This document shows, piece after piece, positions 42,044 through 56,762 of a stretch of 64,000 nt of DNA (the first letter of the stretch is position 1; each line of letters begins with the position of its first letter). The stretch is from NCBI GenBank assembly GCA_951812955.1, contig OX638340.1, forward strand, positions 160,001 to 224,000, read 5' to 3'. The position numbers and the translations under genes were made by a program. Origin of the DNA: an uncultured Gemmatimonadota bacterium (GTDB taxonomy: Bacteria > JAAXHH01). The notes beneath the pieces were generated by a model. It had not been told where the DNA came from. It saw only the letters and a list, made by a program, of their open reading frames with translations, and did not search any database.

Positions 42044-42931
42044 GTGGAAGTCATCAACCAGATCTGGTCTCACCTGGTTCGCACCAAGGGCAAGCGGCTC
42101 AGGCCCGCGCTGGTTTTCCTTTCCGCCTCGGCATATGGCTCGCCGTGCAGAGAGACCATGCTGGCGGCATTTATCATCGAGCTCTGCCATACCGCGACGC
42201 TGATCCACGACGACGTGGTCGACCGGGCGACGACCCGGCGCGGACTGCCCACGCTGAATTCAGTCTGGGACAACCATGTCTCGGTGCTCATGGGCGACAA
42301 CGTGATCGCAAGGGTGTTGACGCTGATCGCGAAACTGGATTGTTCGAGGATCACGACGAAAATAGCGGAATGCGTCGAACGGCTGACCGAGGGCGAGTTG
42401 CACCAGGCCATACGCCGGTTCAACATCAGTACGACCGAGGCGGAGTATTACCGCATCATCAGCAACAAGACGTCTTCGCTCATTGCATGCGGCTGTGATT
42501 CCGGAGTTTACCTTTCGAGTCAGTCGGTCGAGACCGCCCGCCGGTTCGGCGAGTTCGGCGAGAAGCTCGGGATGGCGTTTCAGATTACCGACGACATCCT
42601 GAATTTCACGGGAGACGAGGACGTCATCGGCAAACCGAGAGGTAACGATTTCCGGGAAGGCACGGTTACCCTGCCCCTGATCCATGCCCTCCGCAACGCC
42701 TCCAGCGACGGAAACCGGCGCGTGGAGCAATTGCTTGAAACGGAGTGGAGCGACCGCGTCTGCGACGAGATCGTCGAATTCGTCCACGTCCACGACGGCA
42801 TCCGTTACGCGAAAGGCAAGGCGCTGGCATACGCGGAAGAGGCCAAGAAGATCCTGGCCGAAGAACCGGAGACCCCTGCGAAGCAAGCCCTGTTGAACAT
42901 GGTGGATTACGCCATTGAACGGGATCGATGA
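42044..42931 (+). CDS. trans-polyprenyl diphosphate synthase (IspB-like)
   Basis: GKRLRPAL, first Asp-rich motif LIHDDVVD, second region FQITDDILN (DDxxN rather than DDxxD), GKPRGNDFREG; GTG at 42044 is the only standard start after upstream in-frame stop at 41933. Confidence 0.7.
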   Translation: MEVINQIWSHLVRTKGKRLRPALVFLSASAYGSPCRETMLAAFIIELCHTATLIHDDVVDRATTRRGLPTLNSVWDNHVSVLMGDNVIARVLTLIAKLDCSRITTKIAECVERLTEGELHQAIRRFNISTTEAEYYRIISNKTSSLIACGCDSGVYLSSQSVETARRFGEFGEKLGMAFQITDDILNFTGDEDVIGKPRGNDFREGTVTLPLIHALRNASSDGNRRVEQLLETEWSDRVCDEIVEFVHVHDGIRYAKGKALAYAEEAKKILAEEPETPAKQALLNMVDYAIERDR

Positions 42932-42938
42932 TGCATGT

Positions 42939-43814
42939 ATGGATTCTATATCCGTAATCGTCATTACCTATAACGAAGAACCGCATATCGATTCCTGTCT
43001 GCGGAGCGTTTCATGGGTCGACGAAATCGTGGTGGTGGATTGCGGCAGCAGCGATCGCACGGTTGAGATCTGCAACGGCCACGAGAAAGTCCGGCTGTTT
43101 CATGTAGACCGGCACGGCAGTGGACAGCAGAAACAACAGGCCCTGGACCGGGCGGTTTCCGAATGGGTGCTGAACCTGGACGCGGACGAACGGCTCAGCG
43201 AATCCCTGCAGTCGGACATACGGCGCCTCCTCGAGACACCGGCGCCCTGCGACGGTTACCATATACCAAGGGAGAACTACTTCCTCGCCAGGCATATCCG
43301 GCACGCGGCGGGATGGGGAGACGACCGGCCGCTCCGGCTGCTCCGACGGACGAAGGCGGCCGTCACCCGGACCCAGGTGCACGAGACCTTCGTGGTGGAC
43401 GGACCGACCGGCAGGCTCGAATCTCCCCTGATACACGATGCCTACACCAGCCTGTACCAGTATATCGAGAAGCTGAACGAATACACGTCGATCGAGGTGA
43501 GAAACCGGCTCAAGGCGCGGCCGGACCGAAAGATTACCTGGGTGCACATTGCCCTCGCTCCCCTGGGCACGTTCTGGAAGTTGTACGTGATGAAACGAGG
43601 GTATCTCGATGGGATGCAAGGGCTTTTGCTTTGTGTCCTTTCATCTGTATCGGTCATGTCCGGGTACGCGAAGACATGGGAATACGGGATGTACAGGAAG
43701 CGGGGCGGCCGGATGTTCCCGCCCATTCGGACCGAGGAAGTAAGGACCCGGCAACCGGGCTACAACCGGCTGATCCGGGATGGCGACGAAGAATTCAACT
43801 GGAAGGATGATTGA
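42939..43814 (+). CDS. family-2 glycosyltransferase, WaaE/KdtX-like (LPS-core-type)
   Basis: ISVIVITYNEE, DCGSSD, LDADE (DxD) and C-terminal KRGYLDG ... YAKTWEY tail; ATG 42939 (TTG 42915 also in frame). Confidence 0.75.
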   Translation: MDSISVIVITYNEEPHIDSCLRSVSWVDEIVVVDCGSSDRTVEICNGHEKVRLFHVDRHGSGQQKQQALDRAVSEWVLNLDADERLSESLQSDIRRLLETPAPCDGYHIPRENYFLARHIRHAAGWGDDRPLRLLRRTKAAVTRTQVHETFVVDGPTGRLESPLIHDAYTSLYQYIEKLNEYTSIEVRNRLKARPDRKITWVHIALAPLGTFWKLYVMKRGYLDGMQGLLLCVLSSVSVMSGYAKTWEYGMYRKRGGRMFPPIRTEEVRTRQPGYNRLIRDGDEEFNWKDD

Positions 43815-43820
43815 GACCCG

Positions 43821-44807
43821 ATGGGCCTGAAAGACACCTTTTACAAGACCGCGTCCCGGTACGAACCGCTTCAGCGGGTCCTGCGCAATGCCGTCGTCGC
43901 GCGTAAACTGCGATTTCCCGAAGTGATCAGCATCGAGTCTTCGAGTTTCTGCAATGCCGACTGCATCATGTGCCCGAGGGAGCTGCTCAGCCGCAAGAAG
44001 GGCAACATGTCCATGGAGCTGTACCGCAAGATCATCGACGAGTGCGCCGAGAACGCCCGGTACATCAAGCTCGTACAGCCCTTCATGTTCGGTGAGTCCT
44101 TCATCAACAAGCAACTCGTCGACATGATCGCGTATACGAAAAACCGGCTGCCCCGCGTGCCGGTCAGTGTGAGCACCAACGGTTCCCTCATCGATCCCCG
44201 GAAGGCCCAGGAGCTCATCGACTGCAAGCTGGACAAGATCAACATCGATATCGACGGGGCGACGGCGGACACCTTCGAAGCGGTGCGCGTGGGTCTCGAT
44301 TACAAACAGGTGGTGGAAAACGCGCGGTACTTGATGGAGCTGAAACGGTCCACCGCCAGCCGGACGCCCGAAATCACGGTGACGATCATCAATATGGAAG
44401 AAACCCAGCACGAAGTCGAGGCGTTCCGGGAGCTGTGGGCGCCCATCGCCGACAACGTGGTCGTGCAAAGCTACACCACGTGGACCGGAAGCGTGGATGA
44501 CAAGAACGTGGGTGATCAGGCCGCGGCTTCGGCGGTGGGCGGTTTCACCTTTCCCTGCAAGCATCCCTGGGAGGAGTTCGTCATCGCCAACGACGGCCGC
44601 GTGTCCATCTGCTGCCTCGATTTCGACTTCAAGGTGGAGGTGGGCGACGTATCGAAGCAATCGATCAGGGAGGTCTGGAACGGCGCTCCGATCGAGGAGA
44701 TCCGGCAGAAGATGATCGAGAACAGGTACGACGAACTCGAGATCTGCAGCCAGTGCAACAACTACATCTTTCAGACCGAATGCGCCTGGCACCAGGTGTG
44801 GAAGTGA
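43821..44807 (+). CDS. radical SAM protein with C-terminal SPASM-like Cys-rich domain
   Basis: 328 aa; SSSFCNADCIMCP (CxxxCxxC); C-terminal CKHPW...CCLD...CSQCNNY cysteine clusters. Confidence 0.75.
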   Translation: MGLKDTFYKTASRYEPLQRVLRNAVVARKLRFPEVISIESSSFCNADCIMCPRELLSRKKGNMSMELYRKIIDECAENARYIKLVQPFMFGESFINKQLVDMIAYTKNRLPRVPVSVSTNGSLIDPRKAQELIDCKLDKINIDIDGATADTFEAVRVGLDYKQVVENARYLMELKRSTASRTPEITVTIINMEETQHEVEAFRELWAPIADNVVVQSYTTWTGSVDDKNVGDQAAASAVGGFTFPCKHPWEEFVIANDGRVSICCLDFDFKVEVGDVSKQSIREVWNGAPIEEIRQKMIENRYDELEICSQCNNYIFQTECAWHQVWK

Positions 44808-44899
44808 TGCCGGTCCACTCGTATCCCGCCTGAATGGGCAGGCCGCCCGGATACCCGTAAGCGTCCCCTTTTTAAATCTCCTTCGACATGAGGAATACC

Positions 44900-46045
44900 A
44901 TGGACCGCATGGCGCCCGCGCGCATCCTGCAGGTGTGTTCCTCCCTGGCCTGGGGTGGTACGGAGATGCACGTGCCGATCCTGTCGGGTAAACTCAGGGC
45001 CCGCGGCCACGACGTGCGTCTGGTGCTTCATCCGAAGGGATCGATCGCCGGCGAGTCACGGGAATTGGGTTTCCCGACCGAGACCATCCCCATCGGCGGA
45101 TACGTGAATCCGGTTACTACCTGTGCGCTGGGGCGGTGCATACGGCGCTTCAGGCCTCGTGTCATCCACCTCCACCTTTCCCGCGACCTCTGGCAGACCG
45201 TGCCCGCTGCGCGGTTGGCGGGATACGACGGGCCGGTCGTCCTCACCAAGCACGTGGGTTCCTACGTGACGAAAACGGACCCTCTGCACCGCTGGCTGTA
45301 CCGCCGCGTGTCCCGCGTCATTACGGTATCGGAGACGTTGAACCGGAACGTGCGCGAGACCTGTCCCATCGACCCGGAACGCGTAGTAACCGTGCATCCG
45401 GCTCTGGACCTGGAACGGTTCGATCCCACCGGTTACGATCGGATGGAAACGAGAAAGTCGCTTGGATTCCCGTCCGGCGCCGTCGTGGTGGGGACCGTGG
45501 GGCGCGTTTCTCCGGGAAAGGGGTACGAAGAGTTCCTGCAGGCCGCCCGGTTGCTCCGGGACCGCCATCCCGATGTGCCCCTGCGTTTCCTCGTGGCGGG
45601 CGAGGCCAGCTACGGAGAGGAAGCCTACCACGACGGAATCGTTCATTACGCCCGGGAACTCGACCTCGCTGAGACCGTTCTTTTCGCGGGTTTCAGGCGG
45701 GATATTCCCGCCTTGCTGAACGCCATGGACGTTTTTATATTTCCCTCCAGAGCGGAGGGATTCGGCGCGACCGTCATCGAGGCGATGGCCATGGGCGTTG
45801 CCTGCGTATCGACCCGGTCCGACGGGACGCTGGACACCGTGGAGGACGGGGTAACGGGCCTGGTCTTCCAGGGAGGCGACGCGGAAGGGCTTGCGCGGTC
45901 GGTCGAATCGCTGCTTACGGACGAGCAGTTGCGCACGCGCATCGCGGAGAACGGCTGCAGACAGGCCAGGGAACGCTTTAATCTCGATGCCATGACCGAC
46001 CGCGTGGAAGCGCTCTACGCCGAATCAAAAGCCCATCCCGCCTGA
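44900..46045 (+). CDS. family-4 glycosyltransferase (GT-B, retaining type)
   Basis: EGFGATVIEAMAMGVACVSTRSDG near C-terminus (E-x7-E-like GT4 motif); ATG 44900 has GAGGAA RBS (ATG 44888 also possible). Confidence 0.75.
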   Translation: MDRMAPARILQVCSSLAWGGTEMHVPILSGKLRARGHDVRLVLHPKGSIAGESRELGFPTETIPIGGYVNPVTTCALGRCIRRFRPRVIHLHLSRDLWQTVPAARLAGYDGPVVLTKHVGSYVTKTDPLHRWLYRRVSRVITVSETLNRNVRETCPIDPERVVTVHPALDLERFDPTGYDRMETRKSLGFPSGAVVVGTVGRVSPGKGYEEFLQAARLLRDRHPDVPLRFLVAGEASYGEEAYHDGIVHYARELDLAETVLFAGFRRDIPALLNAMDVFIFPSRAEGFGATVIEAMAMGVACVSTRSDGTLDTVEDGVTGLVFQGGDAEGLARSVESLLTDEQLRTRIAENGCRQARERFNLDAMTDRVEALYAESKAHPA

Positions 46046-46063: not shown

Positions 46064-47998
46064 ATGAACCTGTATCTCCGAATACTGTCCTATGTAAAGC
46101 CCTACTGGTACTTCATGGCCGGCGCCATGGTGTGCATGGCCTTCTTTGCGCTGACCAGCAGCGCAACGGTCTGGGTGGCCCTGCCCTTTCTGCAGACCCT
46201 GTTCGGCCATCAAACCGTACAGACGGACCAGTCCGGGCAGACCGGGCAAACCGTACAGACGGACCAGACCGGGCAGTCCGGGCAGACCGGGCAGTTCGAC
46301 TTGGCGCGGGATTCGGCGAACCGGTTGGAGCAACGGGCCGGGATGGCGGGCCTGCGCGAGTCGTTGAAGGATCGCACCAACGCCCTGATCACCCGGCCGA
46401 CCAGGCAGGCTACGCTGGAACGCCTCTGCCTGATCATCCTGTTCATCCTCCTGATCAAGAACATCAGCAGTTACCTGCAGGCCTACCTGATGGCCTACGC
46501 CGAGAACGGGGTCATCAAGGACCTACGGAACCATCTCTATATCCACCTTCACCGCCTTTCCCTGTCCTACTTCCACCGTGAACGCACGGGAGAGCTCATC
46601 TCCCGCGTGTCCTACGACGTCATGAAGATCAACGGGACGGTTTCCGCCGCCTTCGGGACGTTGATCAAGGAACCTATGCTGGTGGTGGTCTACCTCGCGA
46701 TCCTCTTGATCCTGAGCTGGCAATTGACGCTGGTCTCCCTGGTGCTTCTTCCCTTCAGCGTCCTCGTCATCACCACGGTGGGCAGGCGGCTGCGCCGGAG
46801 CAGCACCGCCTCACAGGAAGCCATGGCCGATCTGACCTCGACGCTCCAGGAGACCGTGGCCGGCGTACGGGTGGTCAAGGCCTTCAACATGGAATCCTTC
46901 GAGATCGGCAAGTTCAAGCGGCAGACCCAGCATTACTTCGCCACGCTGCTTCGACTGACCCACATGCACAACCTGGCCAGCCCCATCACGGAGATCCTGG
47001 GCAGCTTCGTCGGCCTGGCGATCCTCTGGTACGGCGGCCGGCAGGTCCTCGAAGGCGGCCTGCTTGCTCCGGAGGATTTCCTGACATTCTTTCTCGCCCT
47101 CTTTTCCATGATGAAACCGGTCAAGGAACTCGGACAGGTGCACAACCGAATCCAGGAGGGAATCGCGGCCGCCGACCGCGTGTTTTCGATCCTGGACACG
47201 GCGCCCGAAATCACGGACGCGCCCGAAGCGGAGCGGCTTCCCGACCTGCGGCGGGAAATCCGGTTCCACCGTGTTGCCTTCCGGTACGACAGGTCCGCCG
47301 AACCCGCCCTTGAGGATATCGATCTCGTGGTCCGATCGGGAGAGACCGTGGCCCTCGTGGGACCGAGCGGTGGTGGCAAGTCCACCCTGGTTGACCTCGT
47401 CGCACGGTTTTACGACCCGACCTGCGGGCGTATCGAGATAGATGGGAAAGACCTGCGTTCGGTCACCGTGGCGTCCCTCCGGGACAAGATGGGCATCGTG
47501 ACACAGGACGTGATCCTGTTCAACGACACGGTCCGCAACAATATCGCTTACGGCGTGCAGGACATGCCCGTGGACCGGATACAATCCGCCGCGGCTGCTG
47601 CCAACGCGGATGCCTTCATCGACCAGTTGCCCGATGGATACGAAACATATCTCGGGGAACGCGGCGTGCGTCTCTCCGGGGGCCAGCGCCAGCGTATCGC
47701 GATCGCAAGGGCCATCCTGAAGGATCCCCAGATCCTCATATTCGACGAGGCCACCTCCAGTCTGGATACCGAGTCCGAACTGCTGGTCCAGGAGGCCATC
47801 GACCGGTTGATGGCGGGGAGGACGGCCCTGGTCATCGCCCATCGCCTGTCGACCGTGCAGAAGGCGGACCGGGTGGTCGTGGTCGACCGTGGCCGTATCG
47901 TGCAGACCGGCGATCACGGATCGCTGATCCGGGAAGACGGCCTGTACCGGAAGCTCTACAATCTGCAGTTCCGGGACCAGGAACCCGTCGCGGAATAA
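46064..47998 (+). CDS. ABC transporter, fused permease/ATPase, MsbA-like (lipid A/LPS export type)
   Basis: 644 aa; 6 TM then Walker A GPSGGGKST, signature LSGGQRQRIAIARA, Walker B ILIFDEATSSLD; Q/T/G-rich insert in first external loop. Confidence 0.8.
   Translation: MNLYLRILSYVKPYWYFMAGAMVCMAFFALTSSATVWVALPFLQTLFGHQTVQTDQSGQTGQTVQTDQTGQSGQTGQFDLARDSANRLEQRAGMAGLRESLKDRTNALITRPTRQATLERLCLIILFILLIKNISSYLQAYLMAYAENGVIKDLRNHLYIHLHRLSLSYFHRERTGELISRVSYDVMKINGTVSAAFGTLIKEPMLVVVYLAILLILSWQLTLVSLVLLPFSVLVITTVGRRLRRSSTASQEAMADLTSTLQETVAGVRVVKAFNMESFEIGKFKRQTQHYFATLLRLTHMHNLASPITEILGSFVGLAILWYGGRQVLEGGLLAPEDFLTFFLALFSMMKPVKELGQVHNRIQEGIAAADRVFSILDTAPEITDAPEAERLPDLRREIRFHRVAFRYDRSAEPALEDIDLVVRSGETVALVGPSGGGKSTLVDLVARFYDPTCGRIEIDGKDLRSVTVASLRDKMGIVTQDVILFNDTVRNNIAYGVQDMPVDRIQSAAAAANADAFIDQLPDGYETYLGERGVRLSGGQRQRIAIARAILKDPQILIFDEATSSLDTESELLVQEAIDRLMAGRTALVIAHRLSTVQKADRVVVVDRGRIVQTGDHGSLIREDGLYRKLYNLQFRDQEPVAE
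46211..46294 (+). repeat. in-frame 36-bp tandem repeat (2 copies + 12-bp partial) inside the MsbA-like gene
   Basis: CAAACCGTACAGACGGACCAG(T/A)CCGGGCAG(A/T)CCGGG x2 then CAGACCGGGCAG; encodes QTVQTDQSGQTG-QTVQTDQTGQSG-QTGQ. Confidence 0.8.
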
Positions 47999-48008
47999 CG
48001 GACGGTGG

Positions 48009-49154
48009 ATGATGTGGTATCCTATCGAGAAGCGTTTCAAGACCCGCGTGCTCAAATGGCTGGCAAGCCATCCCCTGGGACAGCGCCACGCGCCGCCCGG
48101 CACGGTCGATCCGGATGGCATCAACCGGATCCTGATCATCCGGCAGCATGATCAGTTCGGCGATTTCCTGCTGACCACCCCCGCGATCCGTGCGCTGCGT
48201 GCGCGGTTTCCCGATGCGCACCTGTCGCTGGTCGTCCGCGCCTACTTGTATCCCGTGGCCCAGGGCAATCCGGACGTGGACCAGGTCCTGGTTTTCCACG
48301 AATCCGGTTTTCGCTGGCGACCCCGAGACATCCGTTCTTTCGTCGACCTGATGCGCGGGTCCATCGACCTCGCCGTCGTGTTCAATACGGTATCCCATTC
48401 CTTCTCCAGCGACCTGATCGCCTGGCTCTCCGGCGCCCCCGTAGTCATGGGACCCGCGACACCCACTTTCGACCACCTCGATCATAATCCGTTCTACACG
48501 GTAAACGTACCCGTCAATCCCGAACCCAGGCACCAGATCCAGCGAAACCTGGACGTGGTCCGGTATGTAGGCGCGGATACGGAAGACCTTTCCTACGGTT
48601 ATGCCATGTCCGAGGATGAACGGGCCGGAGGACGTGAAGTAGTCGAAGGACAGGCAGGAGGTCCGACCGCGCCCGGAGGCCCCGTGGTCGCCGTCCACTT
48701 CGGAACCGGGGACGTGAGGAAACGATATCCGGTCGGACAACTGGCCCGCGTTTGCGACGAGTTGGCCACCCGACTCTCCGCCCGGATCCTGGTCATACCC
48801 GCACCGGGGGACGAGGCACTGCTGCGCGCCCTGTGCGACGCGGCATCCACGCCCCTGCGCGGGGTGCCGCCCATGTCGCTGCGGAGGGTAGCCGGAGTGC
48901 TCCACGCCGCGGATCTGCTCGTGTGCAATGATACCGGGGTACTTCACCTGGCCGCCGCGGTAGGAACGCCGACTCTTTCCTTCCACGCCACGAGTGATCC
49001 GGCCTACTGGAAACCGCCCGGCGCCGGGCACCGCGCCTTCTATGCCGTCAGCCGGCGGATCGATGAGATCCCGCCGGACCGGGTTTGCCGCGAAATTTCC
49101 GCCATGCTCGATGGTCCCCCCGGGGCCGGAACAGGCGAGATAATCCGCGTCTGA
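48009..49154 (+). CDS. family-9 glycosyltransferase (ADP-heptose:LPS heptosyltransferase-like)
   Basis: 381 aa; RILIIRQHDQFGDFLLTTPAIRALR N-term and C-terminal LVCNDTGVLHLAAAVGTPTLSF (GT9 hallmark). Confidence 0.75.
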   Translation: MMWYPIEKRFKTRVLKWLASHPLGQRHAPPGTVDPDGINRILIIRQHDQFGDFLLTTPAIRALRARFPDAHLSLVVRAYLYPVAQGNPDVDQVLVFHESGFRWRPRDIRSFVDLMRGSIDLAVVFNTVSHSFSSDLIAWLSGAPVVMGPATPTFDHLDHNPFYTVNVPVNPEPRHQIQRNLDVVRYVGADTEDLSYGYAMSEDERAGGREVVEGQAGGPTAPGGPVVAVHFGTGDVRKRYPVGQLARVCDELATRLSARILVIPAPGDEALLRALCDAASTPLRGVPPMSLRRVAGVLHAADLLVCNDTGVLHLAAAVGTPTLSFHATSDPAYWKPPGAGHRAFYAVSRRIDEIPPDRVCREISAMLDGPPGAGTGEIIRV

Positions 49155-49257: not shown

Positions 49258-49758
49258 ATGGCGACCAAACTCGATATGGGCTGCGGTCCCTTCGGGAAAC
49301 TGGAAGGCGCCGTCGGCCTGGATATCAATGACGCGGCGCACGTGGACGTCGTGCACGATCTGGACGAGTACCCCTATCCCTTCGTCGACGGCCAGTTCGA
49401 TCATATCGAGATGTCCCACATTCTGGAACATATCCGCCAGCCGGCCAGGGCCATGGACGAAGTTTTCCGCATCGCGCGATCCGGGGCGTCGATCCGTATC
49501 GTCACGCCCCATTACTCTTCCCAGTTGTCCTATGGCGACCTGACCCACTATCATCACTTCGGCTACGTGACGATCACCCAGATGTGCCGGGACGGGCGGT
49601 TCCGAATGGACGGCTGCAGGCTGATTTTCAGCGACATCTACCGGGTACTGGGCATCAGCCTGTTCGCCAACTGGTTTCCCCGGCGTTGGGAGAAATACCT
49701 CGCGTTCATCTTCCCGGGCATGTACGTAGAGGCGAATCTGAGCGTTGTCAAAGCTTGA
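49258..49758 (+). CDS. class I SAM-dependent methyltransferase
   Basis: 166 aa; motif I LDMGCG, motif post-I DINDAAHVD. Confidence 0.55.
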   Translation: MATKLDMGCGPFGKLEGAVGLDINDAAHVDVVHDLDEYPYPFVDGQFDHIEMSHILEHIRQPARAMDEVFRIARSGASIRIVTPHYSSQLSYGDLTHYHHFGYVTITQMCRDGRFRMDGCRLIFSDIYRVLGISLFANWFPRRWEKYLAFIFPGMYVEANLSVVKA

Positions 49759-49786
49759 ACGGAACGGGATGAACCGGAGGGCCGAC

Positions 49787-50098
49787 ATGGCCGCATCGAC
49801 AGATACCACCGGAAACAAGGCCGCACGGGCCCTGCGCCGGTACTGGCGGGCCAATATTCGGTTCATGGCCGTGTTGCTCGGGCTGTGGGCCCTGGCCGGA
49901 CTGGGCGCCGGCATCCTGTTCGCGGACGCGCTCAACGCTTACCGGATATCCGGCACCGGCTTTCCCCTGGGTTTCTGGTTCGCCCACCAGGGCAGCATCA
50001 TCGTGTTCGTGCTGCTCATCCTGGCCTACTGCCTCTACATGAACCGCCTGGATAAACGGCACCGTCGCGAACTCGAAAGTACGGAACAGGAAGGTTAG
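49787..50098 (+). CDS. DUF4212-type small membrane protein (putative small subunit of Na+/solute symporter)
   Basis: about 104 aa from ATG 49787 (GGAGGG RBS); 2 TM helices; position immediately upstream of an SSS-family permease is characteristic. Confidence 0.55.
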   Translation: MAASTDTTGNKAARALRRYWRANIRFMAVLLGLWALAGLGAGILFADALNAYRISGTGFPLGFWFAHQGSIIVFVLLILAYCLYMNRLDKRHRRELESTEQEG

Positions 50099-50107
50099 AA
50101 TCGGCCT

Positions 50108-51961
<1,854 letters not shown>

Positions 51962-51979: not shown

Positions 51980-52768
51980 ATGTCCATTTCCGTCATAGTC
52001 ATAGCCCGGGACGAAGCCCTCCGGATCGAAACCTGCCTGCAGAGCGCGCGCTTCGCCGACGAGATCGTGCTCGTGGACTCCGGGAGCACGGACGACACCG
52101 TCGCCATCGCGCGGAAGTACGCCGACCAGGTCATCGAATCGGAGTGGCGTGGCTACGGCGCGACCAAGCAACTGGCCCTGGAGCACGCCAGCGGGGACTG
52201 GGTACTCTGGCTGGACGCGGACGAACGCGTCCCGCCGGACCTGCGGGATGAGATCCTCGCCACAGTGGATGCCGGCGAGCATGCCGGATACCGCATCGCT
52301 CGGAAGACGTTTTTCCTGGGACGCTGGATTCGCCACTGCGGCTGGTATCCCGACTACGTACTCCGCCTGTTCCGGCGTGCGGCCGAACCCCGGTTTACCG
52401 ACGACGAGGTCCACGAGTCGCTGCGCATCCAGGGCACGACCGGCGATCTGAAACACCCGATGATTCACGATACCGATCCCACACTCCACCACTACCTCCG
52501 CAAGTTCAACAGTTTTACCAGTCTCGGCGCCCGCCAGCTATACCTGTCTGGCCGGCGTTTCCGTTTGACAGATCTGGTGTTCCGTCCGATTTTTACCCTG
52601 GTGAAAATGTACGTGCTGAAGCGGGGTTTCCTGGATGGCCTGCCCGGCTTCATCTTGTGCGGCCTTTCCGCCTGTTACGTTTTCGCCAAGTACGCCAAGT
52701 TATGGCACCTGCACGCCCGCGGCTCCGCCGACTTCGAATCGGGCGCGGCGGGCGGCCAGTCCTCCTGA
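51980..52768 (+). CDS. family-2 glycosyltransferase, WaaE/KdtX-like
   Basis: ISVIVIARDE, DSGSTDDT, LDADE, KRGFLDG...YAKLWH tail; paralog of 42939 and 52794 genes. Confidence 0.75.
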   Translation: MSISVIVIARDEALRIETCLQSARFADEIVLVDSGSTDDTVAIARKYADQVIESEWRGYGATKQLALEHASGDWVLWLDADERVPPDLRDEILATVDAGEHAGYRIARKTFFLGRWIRHCGWYPDYVLRLFRRAAEPRFTDDEVHESLRIQGTTGDLKHPMIHDTDPTLHHYLRKFNSFTSLGARQLYLSGRRFRLTDLVFRPIFTLVKMYVLKRGFLDGLPGFILCGLSACYVFAKYAKLWHLHARGSADFESGAAGGQSS

Positions 52769-52793
52769 AACCGCACCTTCACCGGCGACTCCC

Positions 52794-53606
52794 ATGCAAA
52801 CGCTGTCCGTCGTGGTAATCACCCGCAATGAGGAACGGAAACTCCGCTGCTGCCTGGATCCCGTCTCCTGGGCCGACGACATCGTCGTAGTAGACAGTTA
52901 CAGCACCGACGCCACGGTGGAAATCGCGGAAACCTACACCGGCCGCGTGTTTCGTCGGGCCTGGTCCGGCTTTGCCGACCAGCGGAATTTCGGCATGGAG
53001 CAGGCCCGCGGGGAATGGATACTCTTTCTCGACGCGGATGAATACGTCACCGGCGGGCTCGAGCAGCGTATTCGCGAATTGTTGCGGGACGGCGGGGACT
53101 ACGACGCCTACAAGATCCATCGCCTGGAACACTTCCTTCGGTTTCCGATCAGACACGGGACCCTCAATCCGAGTTACCAGCCCCGGCTGCTGAGAAAAGG
53201 GAAGGGGTACTGGACGGGCGGCGCGCACGCCCATATCGAGGTAGACGGCCACGGCGAACTGGGCCTGATCCACGAGGACCTCTACCATGATTCGCACAAC
53301 TCGCTCTCCGATTTCATCGAACGGATCAACCAGTACACCACGGTGGACGCGGAAGAGCGTATTCTGGCGGGGCAGCGTGTGGGACGACTGCGCCTGGTGC
53401 TTTCACCTGTCGGGATGGCCTGGAAGTGCTATATCGTTAAAAAGGGGTACCGGGACGGGTTCCCCGGCCTGCTGTTCAGCCTTTGTATGGGGATCTATTC
53501 GTTCCTGAGGCTGGTCAAGGTCTGGCAGCACGGATCCCGGGTAGAGGAGCGTACGGAAGGCCGGGCGAAGGATAACCCGGAAGGCCGGGCGCAGTCGCCG
53601 TCGTGA
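52794..53606 (+). CDS. family-2 glycosyltransferase, WaaE/KdtX-like
   Basis: about 270 aa from ATG 52794 (ORF track 52635 overlaps previous gene); LSVVVITRNEE, DSYSTD, LDADE, KKGYRDG...KVWQH tail. Confidence 0.75.
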   Translation: MQTLSVVVITRNEERKLRCCLDPVSWADDIVVVDSYSTDATVEIAETYTGRVFRRAWSGFADQRNFGMEQARGEWILFLDADEYVTGGLEQRIRELLRDGGDYDAYKIHRLEHFLRFPIRHGTLNPSYQPRLLRKGKGYWTGGAHAHIEVDGHGELGLIHEDLYHDSHNSLSDFIERINQYTTVDAEERILAGQRVGRLRLVLSPVGMAWKCYIVKKGYRDGFPGLLFSLCMGIYSFLRLVKVWQHGSRVEERTEGRAKDNPEGRAQSPS

Positions 53607-53626
53607 AGGACAATTCGGACTGAATC

Positions 53627-54586
53627 ATGTCACAGGACGAACGATGCAGTATCGTGATACCGACGTGGAACGCGGGTTCATTGATCGAACGGTGCCTGCG
53701 CGCACTGAAGGATCACGGGGAAGCGGACCGTACGGAGATCGTAGTGGTCGACGACGGCGGCACGGACGACTCCGTCGAAAGGATAGAGGCGGCCTGTCCG
53801 GATGCGGTCCTGGCCAGGCACGGGGAGAACAGGGGTTTTGCCGCGGCGTGCAACACGGGCGTGGCCCGGGCTTCGCACGAAGTCGTGGTCCTGCTCAACA
53901 ACGACATCGTCGCCACCGGCCCGTTCCTGGATCCGCTCCTTTCCCATTTCCGGGATGACCGGGTGTTCGCTGTCAATCCCCGGGTCTACCACGCCTCGGA
54001 TCGGCGTCCCGGCGGCGGGTTGGTGCGGGGGTACATGCACTGCGGGCTGTTACGACTCAGGTGGGCCGAAAGCGAGTCCCGGCGCGAAGCCGGAGGACTC
54101 ACGCTGTACGCCAACGGGGCCGCCATGGCGGTTTCCAGGGAAAAGTACCTGTCGCTCGGTGGATTCGACACCCTGTACGCGCCCTTTTACTCGGAAGACC
54201 TGGACCTGTCCTACCGTGCGTACCAGCGGGGATGGACCGTGCAATATGAACCGGAAAGCCGGCTTGACCACGATCACGGCGCCACGATCGGCGCCCGACA
54301 TGATCAGACCCGCATCGACCGGGTCAGCATGAGAAACCGGATCCTCTTCGTGTGGCGCAACGTACGGGACGGGCGGTACCTGGCCGGTCATGTCCTTTGG
54401 ATGATCGCCCGCTCGTTCGGCGCGATGCTGAAGGGCGATCTGGCCTTTCTTGGGGCGCTTGTGGACGCGACGGCCCGGTGGGGCGCGGTGATGAAGCGGC
54501 GGCGGTCCGATCAGGAACCCGTGGTCTCCGACCGCGAGATCCTGCGATCCACATCCAGGTGGGCCGGTCGCGAACAGGCCGGATAG
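53627..54586 (+). CDS. family-2 glycosyltransferase (GT-A fold)
   Basis: CSIVIPTWN, VVVDDGGTDDS, LLNNDI, DxD-like FYSEDLDL. Confidence 0.7.
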   Translation: MSQDERCSIVIPTWNAGSLIERCLRALKDHGEADRTEIVVVDDGGTDDSVERIEAACPDAVLARHGENRGFAAACNTGVARASHEVVVLLNNDIVATGPFLDPLLSHFRDDRVFAVNPRVYHASDRRPGGGLVRGYMHCGLLRLRWAESESRREAGGLTLYANGAAMAVSREKYLSLGGFDTLYAPFYSEDLDLSYRAYQRGWTVQYEPESRLDHDHGATIGARHDQTRIDRVSMRNRILFVWRNVRDGRYLAGHVLWMIARSFGAMLKGDLAFLGALVDATARWGAVMKRRRSDQEPVVSDREILRSTSRWAGREQAG

Positions 54587-54633
54587 TCGGATTCTGCGCG
54601 CGCTCGGATTCTGCACTTGCTCGGATTCTGCAC
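54587..54633. repeat. three direct repeats (C)TCGGATTCTGC(AC) at 16-18 bp spacing in the 71-bp gap between GT2 and GT9 genes
   Basis: copies starting 54587, 54605, 54621. Confidence 0.7.
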
Positions 54634-54657
54634 GACAAATGGATAAGTTTGACTACC

Positions 54658-55701
54658 ATGAAAGCACCGGAACTGGATCGGATCCTCATTTCCCGTTTGC
54701 GGTTCATCGGCGATGTCGTGCTTACCACGCCGGTGATCAGGGCGCTGAAGCGTCAGTACCCGGAAGCGGGCCTCTACTTCTTGGCGGAGTCGGGACCCGC
54801 GGCGGTCCTCGCCCGGAACCCCTACCTGGAAGAAGTGATCGTGCTGCCGGATGAGCTCCTTCCAGGCCGGGCCGTCCTGACCCGGTGCGCTGCCCAGGTG
54901 CGGTTCCTTCGTTCATTGCGAAAGCGGCGGTTCGACCTGTCGATCGATCTCTTTGGCAATCCCCGAAGCGCGTTGCTGACCCTGGCCACGGGTGCGCGGT
55001 ACCGGGTCGGCTATGATGTTCGGGGAAGGGGCCGGGCGTATAATGTCAAGATCAGGCGGACCGAATCCCGCCGGGTGCTCGATGCCTACCTGGACGCCGT
55101 ACGGACGATAGGGGTTCCGGTCGAGGACGATCGCACCGAAGTGCATTTCTCCGTGGAAGACGCGAAGTGGGCGGACTCCTGGCTGAAGGCGCGGGGAATC
55201 GACGGAACCCGTCCGATTGTCGCCTTGAACCCCGGCGCCAGCTGGCCCGCCAAGACCTGGAGCGCGGGGCGGTTCGCCGAACTGGCGGCGGGGTTGACCG
55301 GAGAACTGAATGCGGCGGTCCTGCTGGTGGCGGGACCGGGTCAGCGGGATTTCATGAATGTAACAGACGCGCTGACCGCTCATGACTGTCCCGTCGTGCA
55401 TACCGATTCGCTCACCCGTCTGGCGGCGTTGATCCACCGCTGCCGCCTGTACGTTTCAAATGACTGTGGCCCGATGCATATCGCTGTCGCCGTGGGCACG
55501 CCTACGATCGGCCTCTTCGGACCGAGCCGGCCGGAGATCTGGTTTCCCTATTCGGCTGAGGAAGGGCACGTAGCACTGCAGGCCGAAACGGACAACTGCT
55601 GCGGCCGCGATTTCTGCATAAGGTCGACGCCCTGCATCGAATCGATCTCGCCGCGCAAAGTGCTCGACACCGCGGAATCTCTGCTAGGCCGGTCCGTTTA
55701 A
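54658..55701 (+). CDS. family-9 glycosyltransferase (heptosyltransferase-like)
   Basis: about 347 aa from ATG 54658; RILISRLRFIGDVVLTTPVIRALK; C-terminal YVSNDCGPMHIAVAVGTPTIGLFG. Confidence 0.75.
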   Translation: MKAPELDRILISRLRFIGDVVLTTPVIRALKRQYPEAGLYFLAESGPAAVLARNPYLEEVIVLPDELLPGRAVLTRCAAQVRFLRSLRKRRFDLSIDLFGNPRSALLTLATGARYRVGYDVRGRGRAYNVKIRRTESRRVLDAYLDAVRTIGVPVEDDRTEVHFSVEDAKWADSWLKARGIDGTRPIVALNPGASWPAKTWSAGRFAELAAGLTGELNAAVLLVAGPGQRDFMNVTDALTAHDCPVVHTDSLTRLAALIHRCRLYVSNDCGPMHIAVAVGTPTIGLFGPSRPEIWFPYSAEEGHVALQAETDNCCGRDFCIRSTPCIESISPRKVLDTAESLLGRSV

Positions 55702-55721
55702 TCACCCAACCGGAATAATCC

Positions 55722-56762
55722 ATGCCCGTATCACCCGAACGAATCCTGGTCATTAAACTGCGAGCCACAGGTGACGTCGTTCTATCTACTCCCGTAATCG
55801 AAAACCTGAAGCGGCGGTTTCCCGGGGCCCGTATCACATTTCTGACGGAAGAGGCCTCCGCTGACGTATTGAGATGGAATGAATTCCTGGATGACCTCAT
55901 CGTGCTGCCGGTTCGTCGGTGGAAACGCGCCGGTTTCCGGCGGTCCTGGCGCGAGCAGGCTCGTTTCTACCGTAACCTGCGCCGCAGGCGTTTCGATCTC
56001 GCGATAGACCTCTTCGGCAACCCGCGCAGCGCCGTGCTGACCTGGCTGAGCGGGGCGGCGAACCGGGTCGGCTACGCCTTCAGGGGGCGTCGCCTCGCCT
56101 ACAACACCGTGGTTGCGCCCCCGGAACGGGCGGGGCACGAGGTCCTTTTCCACCTCGAGGCCCTCGAGGCCCTGGACATCCCGGTTGTCACCAGCCGGCC
56201 AGCCGTCACCATACCCGGGACGGCCGAAGGAAAGGCGCGCCGGTGGCTGCGTGGGCATATCCAGGAAAGCCGCGCGGTCGTTGGGCTGAATCCAGGTGGC
56301 GGATGGGCAATCAAGCGGTGGCCGCCGGACAGTTTCGGCCGCCTGGCAGACGCCCTGATCGATGAATTCGGCGTGGAAGTCCTGGTCATGTGGGGTCCGG
56401 GCGAAGAGGCGCTCGTCGAAGCGGTGGCCGGCGCCATGCGTAACCGTCCCTTCGTTATCCCCGCGGTAACGCTCGCGGAACTCGGCGCCTACCTCAAACG
56501 CTGCTGCCTGCTGGTCAGTAACGACAGCGGTCCGATGCACATGGCCGCGGCGCTGGACGTTCCGACGATCGGTATTTTCGGTCCAACCGATCCCCGGGCC
56601 CAGGGGCCATGGGGCGATGGTCACGGTGTGGTGCGGAAGGAAAGTGTCGACTGTCTCGGCTGCAACCGGGTCGAATGTCCCATCGGCAACATTTGCATGA
56701 CGACGCTGGAACCCCGAGAGGTACTCGAGAAGATACAGCCATACATTCCAGTCGAAGCTTGA
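55722..56762 (+). CDS. family-9 glycosyltransferase (heptosyltransferase-like)
   Basis: 346 aa; ILVIKLRATGDVVLSTPVIENLK; LVSNDSGPMHMAAALDVPTIGIFG. Confidence 0.75.
   Translation: MPVSPERILVIKLRATGDVVLSTPVIENLKRRFPGARITFLTEEASADVLRWNEFLDDLIVLPVRRWKRAGFRRSWREQARFYRNLRRRRFDLAIDLFGNPRSAVLTWLSGAANRVGYAFRGRRLAYNTVVAPPERAGHEVLFHLEALEALDIPVVTSRPAVTIPGTAEGKARRWLRGHIQESRAVVGLNPGGGWAIKRWPPDSFGRLADALIDEFGVEVLVMWGPGEEALVEAVAGAMRNRPFVIPAVTLAELGAYLKRCCLLVSNDSGPMHMAAALDVPTIGIFGPTDPRAQGPWGDGHGVVRKESVDCLGCNRVECPIGNICMTTLEPREVLEKIQPYIPVEA

Follow-up and report, generated by a model that had tools for sequence, protein, structure and literature searches.

A twitch-domain radical SAM protein in a lipopolysaccharide-core-type glycosyltransferase island may act on an envelope sugar

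We analysed a stretch of 64,000 nucleotides from an uncultured Gemmatimonadota bacterium (assembly GCA_951812955.1, contig OX638340.1, positions 160,001 to 224,000 of the forward strand), here called the window, and in it a gene at positions 43821..44807 (+ strand) that encodes a radical S-adenosylmethionine (SAM) protein of 328 amino acids with a twitch domain. On balance we favour the reading that this protein, the query, modifies a sugar or glycolipid in a lipopolysaccharide (LPS)-type envelope pathway, working with the glycosyltransferases (GTs) of an LPS-core-type assembly line. An earlier note on this DNA had proposed a SPASM radical SAM enzyme acting in a lipo-oligosaccharide core pathway rather than as a maturase of proteins or of ribosomally synthesised peptides with post-translational modifications (RiPPs). 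The pathway context of that proposal has found support, but 'SPASM' should read 'twitch', and the linkage to GTs is frequent, not obligatory. The support comes from the absence of a precursor peptide, a RiPP recognition element (RRE) or a peptidase-type transporter, from the strict synteny of GT2, GT4, MsbA and GT9 genes in orthologous loci, from distant homologs that have genes of the WaaA, GT9, LpxL and GT4 types as neighbours or occur as fusions with a GT2 or GT4 domain, and from the fact that the closest solved relatives in the PDB are the sugar enzymes BtrN, which ranks best, and BlsE.

The open reading frame (ORF) starts with ATG and is present exactly as the earlier note had described it. 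It is a real and clearly coding gene, as can be seen from the GC content of its third codon positions (GC3, 85%) compared with its second (GC2, 37%), from the orthologous loci described below and from its AlphaFold model. This model, made with a 66-sequence alignment, has a mean predicted local distance difference test score (pLDDT) of 95.3 and a predicted template modelling score (pTM) of 0.92. Six beta strands alternating with helices are confidently predicted, forming a (beta/alpha)6 core and a twitch fold, and a two-helix N-terminal extension of about 30 residues lies ahead of the core in the model. The Pfam families Radical_SAM (PF04055; 61.6 bits, cutoff 29.5) and SPASM (55.4 bits, cutoff 21.5) both match. 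The motif CNADCIMCP is found at residues 44-52, and its CX3CX2C cysteines C44, C48 and C51 (43950..43973, + strand), assigned to the SAM-binding [4Fe-4S] cluster, occur in 90/90 aligned family members and align with C16, C20 and C23 of BtrN (PMC9012708). With CX3CX2C placed within a TIM-barrel-type core, the query is a member of the radical SAM superfamily. In the family alignment G91-E92 and N120 are almost invariant as well.

The conservation analysis also covered the C-terminal region. In alignments of 66 and then 90 members, exactly four conserved cysteines follow the core, namely C246, C264, C309 and C312. They form the pattern C246-x12-G259-x4-C264(C265)...C309-x2-C312 (44556..44756, + strand), and cysteine conservation together with the BtrN alignment marks them as predicted ligands of one auxiliary [4Fe-4S] cluster. 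Among the 90 members C246, G259 and C264 are each kept in all, and C309 and C312 each in 88. In a HMMER alignment the four cysteines share columns with C169, C187, C232 and C235 of BtrN (numbering counted from the printed alignment). C265, which stands beside the ligand C264, is kept in 76/90 members and otherwise replaced mostly by Asp or Glu; BtrN differs here, with a Phe in the same column. No second auxiliary-cluster site could be found in the query: the chain ends 16 residues after C312, the one further cysteine in this tail (C321) is not conserved, and a CX5CX3C motif is lacking. A full SPASM domain reportedly needs about seven or eight conserved cysteines including CX2CX5CX3C (a definition said to go back to Haft and Basu 2011 and Grell et al. 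2015). SPASM domains bind two auxiliary clusters (PMC9012708), and a twitch domain is a shortened SPASM domain with one auxiliary [4Fe-4S] cluster, which has Cys4 ligation in BtrN (PMC9012708, PMC10337720). Judged from its sequence, the query has a BtrN-type twitch domain with one predicted Cys4 auxiliary cluster, and we reject a full SPASM identity on the grounds of cysteine conservation and the lack of a second cluster site. Twitch domains, too, fall within the scope of the Pfam SPASM model, which is why that model matches nonetheless. The cysteine-rich, SPASM-like C-terminus of the earlier note is thus borne out as far as the Pfam match goes, but not as a full SPASM domain, since only four cysteines of the twitch type are conserved. 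As a consequence, the premise that SPASM enzymes usually modify peptides applies less to this protein.

The genes on both sides of the query belong to glycan assembly. The immediate upstream partner, here called GT2a (42915..43814, + strand), is a GT2 family glycosyltransferase (Pfam Glycos_transf_2, 65.8 bits); it ends 6 nt before the query, which agrees with the described start 7 nt after a GT2 gene. The GT4, MsbA-like and GT9 genes named in the earlier note follow on the same strand, and profile matches confirm all three. They are a GT4 family glycosyltransferase (44888..46045, + strand; Pfam Glycos_transf_1, 130.4 bits, and Glyco_transf_4, 81.1 bits), an MsbA-like lipid A or glycolipid ABC exporter (46064..47998, + strand; ABC_membrane and ABC_tran domains, 571.5 bits to TIGR02203 with a cutoff of 602) and a GT9 protein of the heptosyltransferase family (48009..49154, + strand; Pfam Glyco_transf_9, 71.8 bits) that is conserved in orthologous loci. 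A further three GT2 genes and a further two GT9 genes lie beyond these on the downstream side, so that calling the region an LPS-core-like island was fair. The island totals three GT9, four GT2 and one GT4 genes plus the MsbA-like protein, which scores just below equivalog level. By profile matches, its GT9 genes, MsbA-type flippase and further core GTs give it the gene content of an LPS inner-core or lipid A assembly cluster. Intergenic gaps near the radical SAM gene measure 6, 80 and 18 nt. Within the 80 nt that follow this gene we saw no terminator, promoter or riboswitch-like element above chance and no RNA structure better than in shuffled sequence (fold z-score 0.33). Co-transcription of the radical SAM gene with GT2a is compatible with the 6-nt gap and the lack of a terminator.

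A scan of GTDB species genomes gave 29 loci, of which 28 have 70-99% identity to the query (26 of them with usable flanks) and one has 39%. When the proteins of the window were searched against these loci with tblastn, the order nuoM-nuoN-IspB-GT2a-radical SAM-GT4-MsbA-GT9-methyltransferase-DUF4212-symporter-GT2b was found in essentially all orthologous loci, down to 70% identity of the radical SAM protein. GT2a is directly upstream in every orthologous locus with an upstream flank, and the GT4 gene is downstream in every one with a downstream flank. The metagenome-assembled genomes (MAGs) concerned are labelled Latescibacterota, Gemmatimonadota, Zixibacteria or plain 'bacterium'. In the more divergent orthologous loci no other gene of the glycan block is as well conserved as the radical SAM gene. 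For instance, the product of the latter has 81% identity in one locus (L020), where GT2a, GT4, MsbA and GT9 have 72, 64, 76 and 62%, and 69% in another (L023), where the same neighbours have 61, 53, 67 and 50%. This argues for strong purifying selection on the radical SAM gene, with a constraint above that on its GT neighbours.

Beyond this lineage, an exhaustive homolog search at E<=1e-30 found 1,026 representatives (50% identity clusters), all from uncultured organisms, nearly all 300-345 amino acids long and 30-44% identical to the query. Gene neighbourhoods in the family were sampled in 80 metagenomic loci (27-42% identity) plus three from earlier look-ups; the flanking ORFs were called heuristically, the profile classification is heuristic as well, and 143 immediate neighbours were scanned with Pfam. 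The commonest among these 143 are other radical SAM proteins (15, with a B12-binding domain in 12 of them), then class I methyltransferases (12) and GT4 proteins (10), followed by class II aldolases (9), short-chain dehydrogenases/reductases (SDRs; 8), SRAP proteins (8), GT2 proteins (6), epimerases or dehydratases of nucleoside diphosphate (NDP) sugars (5) and Polysacc_synt_2 (3). With local profiles, a GT lies within three genes in 28/75 diverse loci, and a GT or NDP-sugar enzyme in 33/75. GTs make up about 1-2% of bacterial genes. Against this background frequency, which is taken from general knowledge, GT proximity is strongly enriched in the family, but it is no universal rule.

Several of these distant loci have neighbours from glycan or lipid A pathways. 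In L029, which has 39% identity and is sister to the query clade, the order is GT9-GT9-radical SAM-GT9-GT2-GT4-GT9. Elsewhere the radical SAM gene lies between genes for an LpxL-type lipid A acyltransferase and a GT9 protein (L105), adjoins a GT4 gene and an NDP-sugar epimerase (L030), or lies inside a sugar-modification cluster with DegT, formyltransferase and WbmS-like genes (L033). In the neighbour-joining tree the LPS-linked members are scattered and not monophyletic. Fusions are also found: a GT2 domain with the radical SAM protein (P0278), two GT4 domains with it (P0171, 1070 amino acids), a GNAT domain (P0135), and a cytidylyltransferase-like domain of the KdsB/NeuA family that scores barely above the Pfam cutoff (P0159).

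The family also offers some observations in their own right. A gene of the WaaA family (PF04413, the Kdo-transferase family) lies directly upstream of, or overlaps, the radical SAM gene in L097 (4043-6689), L103 (241-3500), L115 (4554-7035) and the P0189 contig, all from one clade. Behind this pair come, in L115, genes for Wzx, GT4 and an ArnT-like PMT_2 protein, and on the P0189 contig those for a second twitch radical SAM protein, methyltransferases and a B12-binding radical SAM protein. The WaaA-like protein of the P0189 contig is fused to a methyltransferase, and tandem twitch radical SAM paralogs occur both there and in L103. A homolog search seeded with a WaaA-linked member returned uncultured sequences only, none tied to an organism with a known LPS structure. 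In L052, L060, L067, L068, L092, L102, L106 and about 18 other loci, genes for B12-binding radical SAM proteins (up to five, in L102) are clustered with GT4 or GT2 genes and class I methyltransferases; we regard these loci as radical-SAM-rich glycan or glycolipid clusters. The nearest non-LPS clade (L041-L048, 38-40% identity, for example L047:3898-11025) has SRAP, a PNP_UDP_1 phosphorylase, an IF-2B-family isomerase and a class II aldolase-SDR fusion as neighbours. This set resembles a salvage pathway for methylthioadenosine or 5'-deoxyadenosine, which would be a disposal route for the radical SAM by-product.

One alternative is that the function has nothing to do with GTs, the query being a housekeeping or cofactor-type radical SAM enzyme carried along in a lineage-specific syntenic block. 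A number of our observations weigh on this side and against a role in envelope glycan assembly. All orthologs at 70-99% identity fall within one lineage labelled Latescibacterota or Gemmatimonadota, so that the synteny alone could be inherited. The earlier note had asked whether homologs are always linked to GTs, and they are not: the 28/75 loci with a GT within three genes amount to only 37% of diverse loci, and the nearest outgroup, a sister marine clade outside glycan clusters (38-42% identity; 37-42% for L035-L049), adjoins SRAP and a set of MtnP-like, MtnA-like and aldolase-SDR genes. The radical SAM gene of L116 likewise has unrelated neighbours and no glycan genes nearby. We nevertheless hold an unrelated function to be unlikely, because the GT association recurs in phylogenetically scattered members and even as covalent GT2 and GT4 fusions, and because the radical SAM gene closely follows or overlaps the upstream GT gene in the query clade, L029, L097, L103 and L115.

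Another possibility is that the protein acts on the lipid part of an envelope glycolipid, or on another membrane lipid, for example by C-C or C-H chemistry on acyl or prenyl chains like that of tetraether synthase. The lipid-modifying radical SAM relatives rank well below BtrN and BlsE, however, and have full SPASM domains (PMC13459092). The fusion partners in the family are GT2, GT4 and cytidylyltransferase-like domains and not lipid enzymes, and the recurrent neighbours are GTs and NDP-sugar enzymes. The polyprenyl synthase near the query is an IspB-type trans enzyme beside the nuo operon, which fits quinone synthesis better, and we regard a lipid target as quite improbable. The usual role of SPASM enzymes, the maturation of a RiPP or, like anSME, of a protein of the sulfatase family, appears least probable of all, to the point of being hard to defend. 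It would explain the Pfam SPASM match, the weak partial NCBIfam matches to WgkB, ScmE/F and the mycofactocin maturase, the presence of SuiB, CteB, SkfB and anSME among the structural neighbours, and the nearby ABC transporter. Yet, in line with the earlier note, the gaps around the gene, the one of 80 nt behind it included, contain no ORF of at least 12 amino acids; across orthologous loci the gap to the GT4 gene ranges from -3 to 334 nt and is close to zero in L013, L016 and L021. The roughly 30 residues ahead of the core are too short for an RRE, and the transporter is of the MsbA type, without a peptidase C39 domain in Pfam and NCBIfam scans, so that the pairing of precursor peptide and transporter which would mark a classical RiPP locus is absent. 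With no precursor ORF, RRE or C39 peptidase, a classical RiPP maturase is rejected. So is an anSME: there is a single auxiliary-cluster site with only 16 residues beyond the CxxC, the best 25 of 41 NCBIfam matches include no anSME model and none of these 25 is near its cutoff, and no sulfatase gene lies within the conserved block.

If the query does act on a sugar of the LPS-type pathway, reductive cleavage of SAM would yield a 5'-deoxyadenosyl radical that takes a hydrogen from a carbinol C-H of the sugar. This sugar could be an activated donor, or more likely a residue just added by the partner GT to a lipid-linked core acceptor, and the modification would take place on the cytoplasmic face, before flipping or export by the MsbA-type protein. 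From the substrate radical two routes are conceivable. The radical might be re-quenched from the opposite face, leading to epimerisation, with C265 as a candidate hydrogen donor. Alternatively, it might be oxidised through the Cys4 auxiliary cluster as electron acceptor to give a keto-sugar, as in dehydrogenation of the BtrN type; in BtrN the Cys4 auxiliary cluster has been proposed as electron acceptor (PMC9012708). We have a slight, weak preference for the redox-neutral epimerisation, since the conserved block holds no aminotransferase or reductase for a keto product. C-methylation, which the earlier note had also listed, is unlikely, because Pfam finds no B12-binding domain in the query, although many distant relatives adjoin separate genes for B12-binding radical SAM proteins.

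To our knowledge, accounts of LPS core biosynthesis have so far named no enzymes other than nucleotide-sugar enzymes, transferases, kinases and dioxygenases that depend on O2. If our reading is true, radical chemistry would be added to this list, and GT-coupled radical SAM proteins in LPS-core clusters would mean that such chemistry also shapes the primary envelope glycolipids of poorly studied phyla, which may include sponge and coral symbionts, judged by the isolate names of the MAGs. It would follow that the LPS core of these bacteria contains an unusual sugar, which could matter for host recognition and for the LPS structures of uncultured lineages. For enzymologists, the large uncharacterised family comes with a genomic handle, as the pairs and fusions of GT and radical SAM protein point to the substrate. 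A bolder hypothesis, which we put forward only tentatively, is that the query is the first member to be recognised of a large family of GT-coupled twitch radical SAM proteins (more than 1,000 representatives at 50% identity, with no curated model) that remodel sugars in situ during envelope glycolipid assembly. They might, for example, epimerise or oxidise a Kdo, heptose or hexose residue of the LPS inner core by radical chemistry that needs no O2, ahead of its export through MsbA.

The remainder of the island shows some further features. At its upstream edge, the ORF of the IspB-type polyprenyl diphosphate synthase (42044-42931) runs 17 nt past the listed start of GT2a. Such close packing of the two genes, right after the nuoL, nuoM and nuoN genes, is kept in close orthologs and blurs the boundary between a respiratory or quinone operon and a glycan operon. 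The MsbA-like gene contains an in-frame tandem repeat with a period of 9/18/36 at 46211-46294, encoding a GQT/DQT-rich stretch (QTVQTDQSGQTGQTVQTDQTGQSGQTGQ) near the N-terminus, past the first hydrophobic segment, and its length varies among orthologous loci. The repeat insertion probably explains why the protein scores just under the TIGR02203 cutoff. After the GT9 gene follows a small class I SAM-methyltransferase-like protein of 166 amino acids (49258..49758, + strand; Pfam Methyltransf_11, 28.4 bits, cutoff 21.2), which is 69-99% conserved in orthologous loci. A DUF4212 small protein and a Na+/solute symporter (SSF) at 49745-51961 then split the island in two halves. In L024 this pair is absent and the methyltransferase-like gene is followed directly by GT2b, and the pair looks like an insertion into the GT island. 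The second half (51980..56762, + strand) comprises, by Pfam matches, GT2 genes at 51980-52768, 52635-53606 and 53627-54586 and GT9 genes at 54352-55701 and 55722-56762. As listed, the GT2 ORF at 52635-53606 and the GT9 ORF at 54352-55701 each share more than 130 nt with the neighbour upstream, and their Pfam matches start at residues 58 and 184, respectively; their true starts probably lie downstream of the listed ones.

In comparison with curated families, the query reaches no NCBIfam cutoff among the best 25 of 41 matches, the best being TIGR04317 with 104.5 bits against 380, and ten diverse homologs likewise reach none. Within the same 25 matches only two models cover the whole query, the 'spiro-SPASM protein' model TIGR04321 (91 bits, cutoff 250), to whose positions 204-505 residues 8-315 align, and the 'twitch domain-containing radical SAM protein' model NF033640, which matches in the twitch region (76 bits, cutoff 170). 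Neither family has an assigned function. Spiro-SPASM proteins possess an N-terminal domain of about 200 residues which is missing from the query; the fused forms P0141 and P0159, of about 510 amino acids, align with TIGR04321 from end to end (151-157 bits, again with a cutoff of 250).

Among enzymes of known function, the peptide and protein maturases anSME, SuiB, CteB, SkfB and PqqE share with the query the core fold, the first SPASM half-motif Cx9-15Gx4C and the Pfam family. SPASM maturases, however, bind two auxiliary clusters (PMC9012708), while the ligands of the query suffice for one, and most of them have an N-terminal RRE or peptide-binding extension and an adjoining precursor gene, neither of which is found here. 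BtrN, the 2-deoxy-scyllo-inosamine (DOIA) dehydrogenase of the butirosin pathway (PDB 4M7T/4M7S), is closer, with about 20% identity. The query exceeds it in length by 78 residues, has six core strands and the two-helix N-terminal extension in its model, and carries the conserved C265 in place of Phe. The BtrN gene is part of a cluster for an aminoglycoside antibiotic, where it has an aminotransferase as partner (PMC9012708), in contrast to the LPS-core-type GT cluster of the query. Given the low identity, the GT2/GT4/MsbA/GT9 context and the absence of aminoglycoside genes and of an aminotransferase, the query is rejected as a BtrN ortholog. In the case of BlsE, a cytosylglucuronate decarboxylase (PDB 7VOB), only the N-terminal core aligns by sequence, and the NCBIfam model for BlsE gives 37.8 bits against a cutoff of 400. 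BlsE and DesII (PDB 8HZY) act in secondary-metabolite pathways, unlike the setting of the query, and all of the sugar-acting twitch or related radical SAM relatives that we met (BtrN, SpeY, BlsE, DesII and AprD4) are antibiotic-pathway enzymes. In the literature we found no description of a radical SAM enzyme linked to LPS core, O-antigen, Kdo or heptosyltransferases, although such a search does not prove that there is none. LPS is nowhere mentioned in a 2026 review on radical SAM enzymes that modify lipids. The query resembles the sugar-acting twitch radical SAM enzymes but is orthologous to none of them and falls into no curated family. Enzymes of this class are known; the undescribed part is the large uncharacterised family and its setting in a primary envelope-glycolipid pathway.
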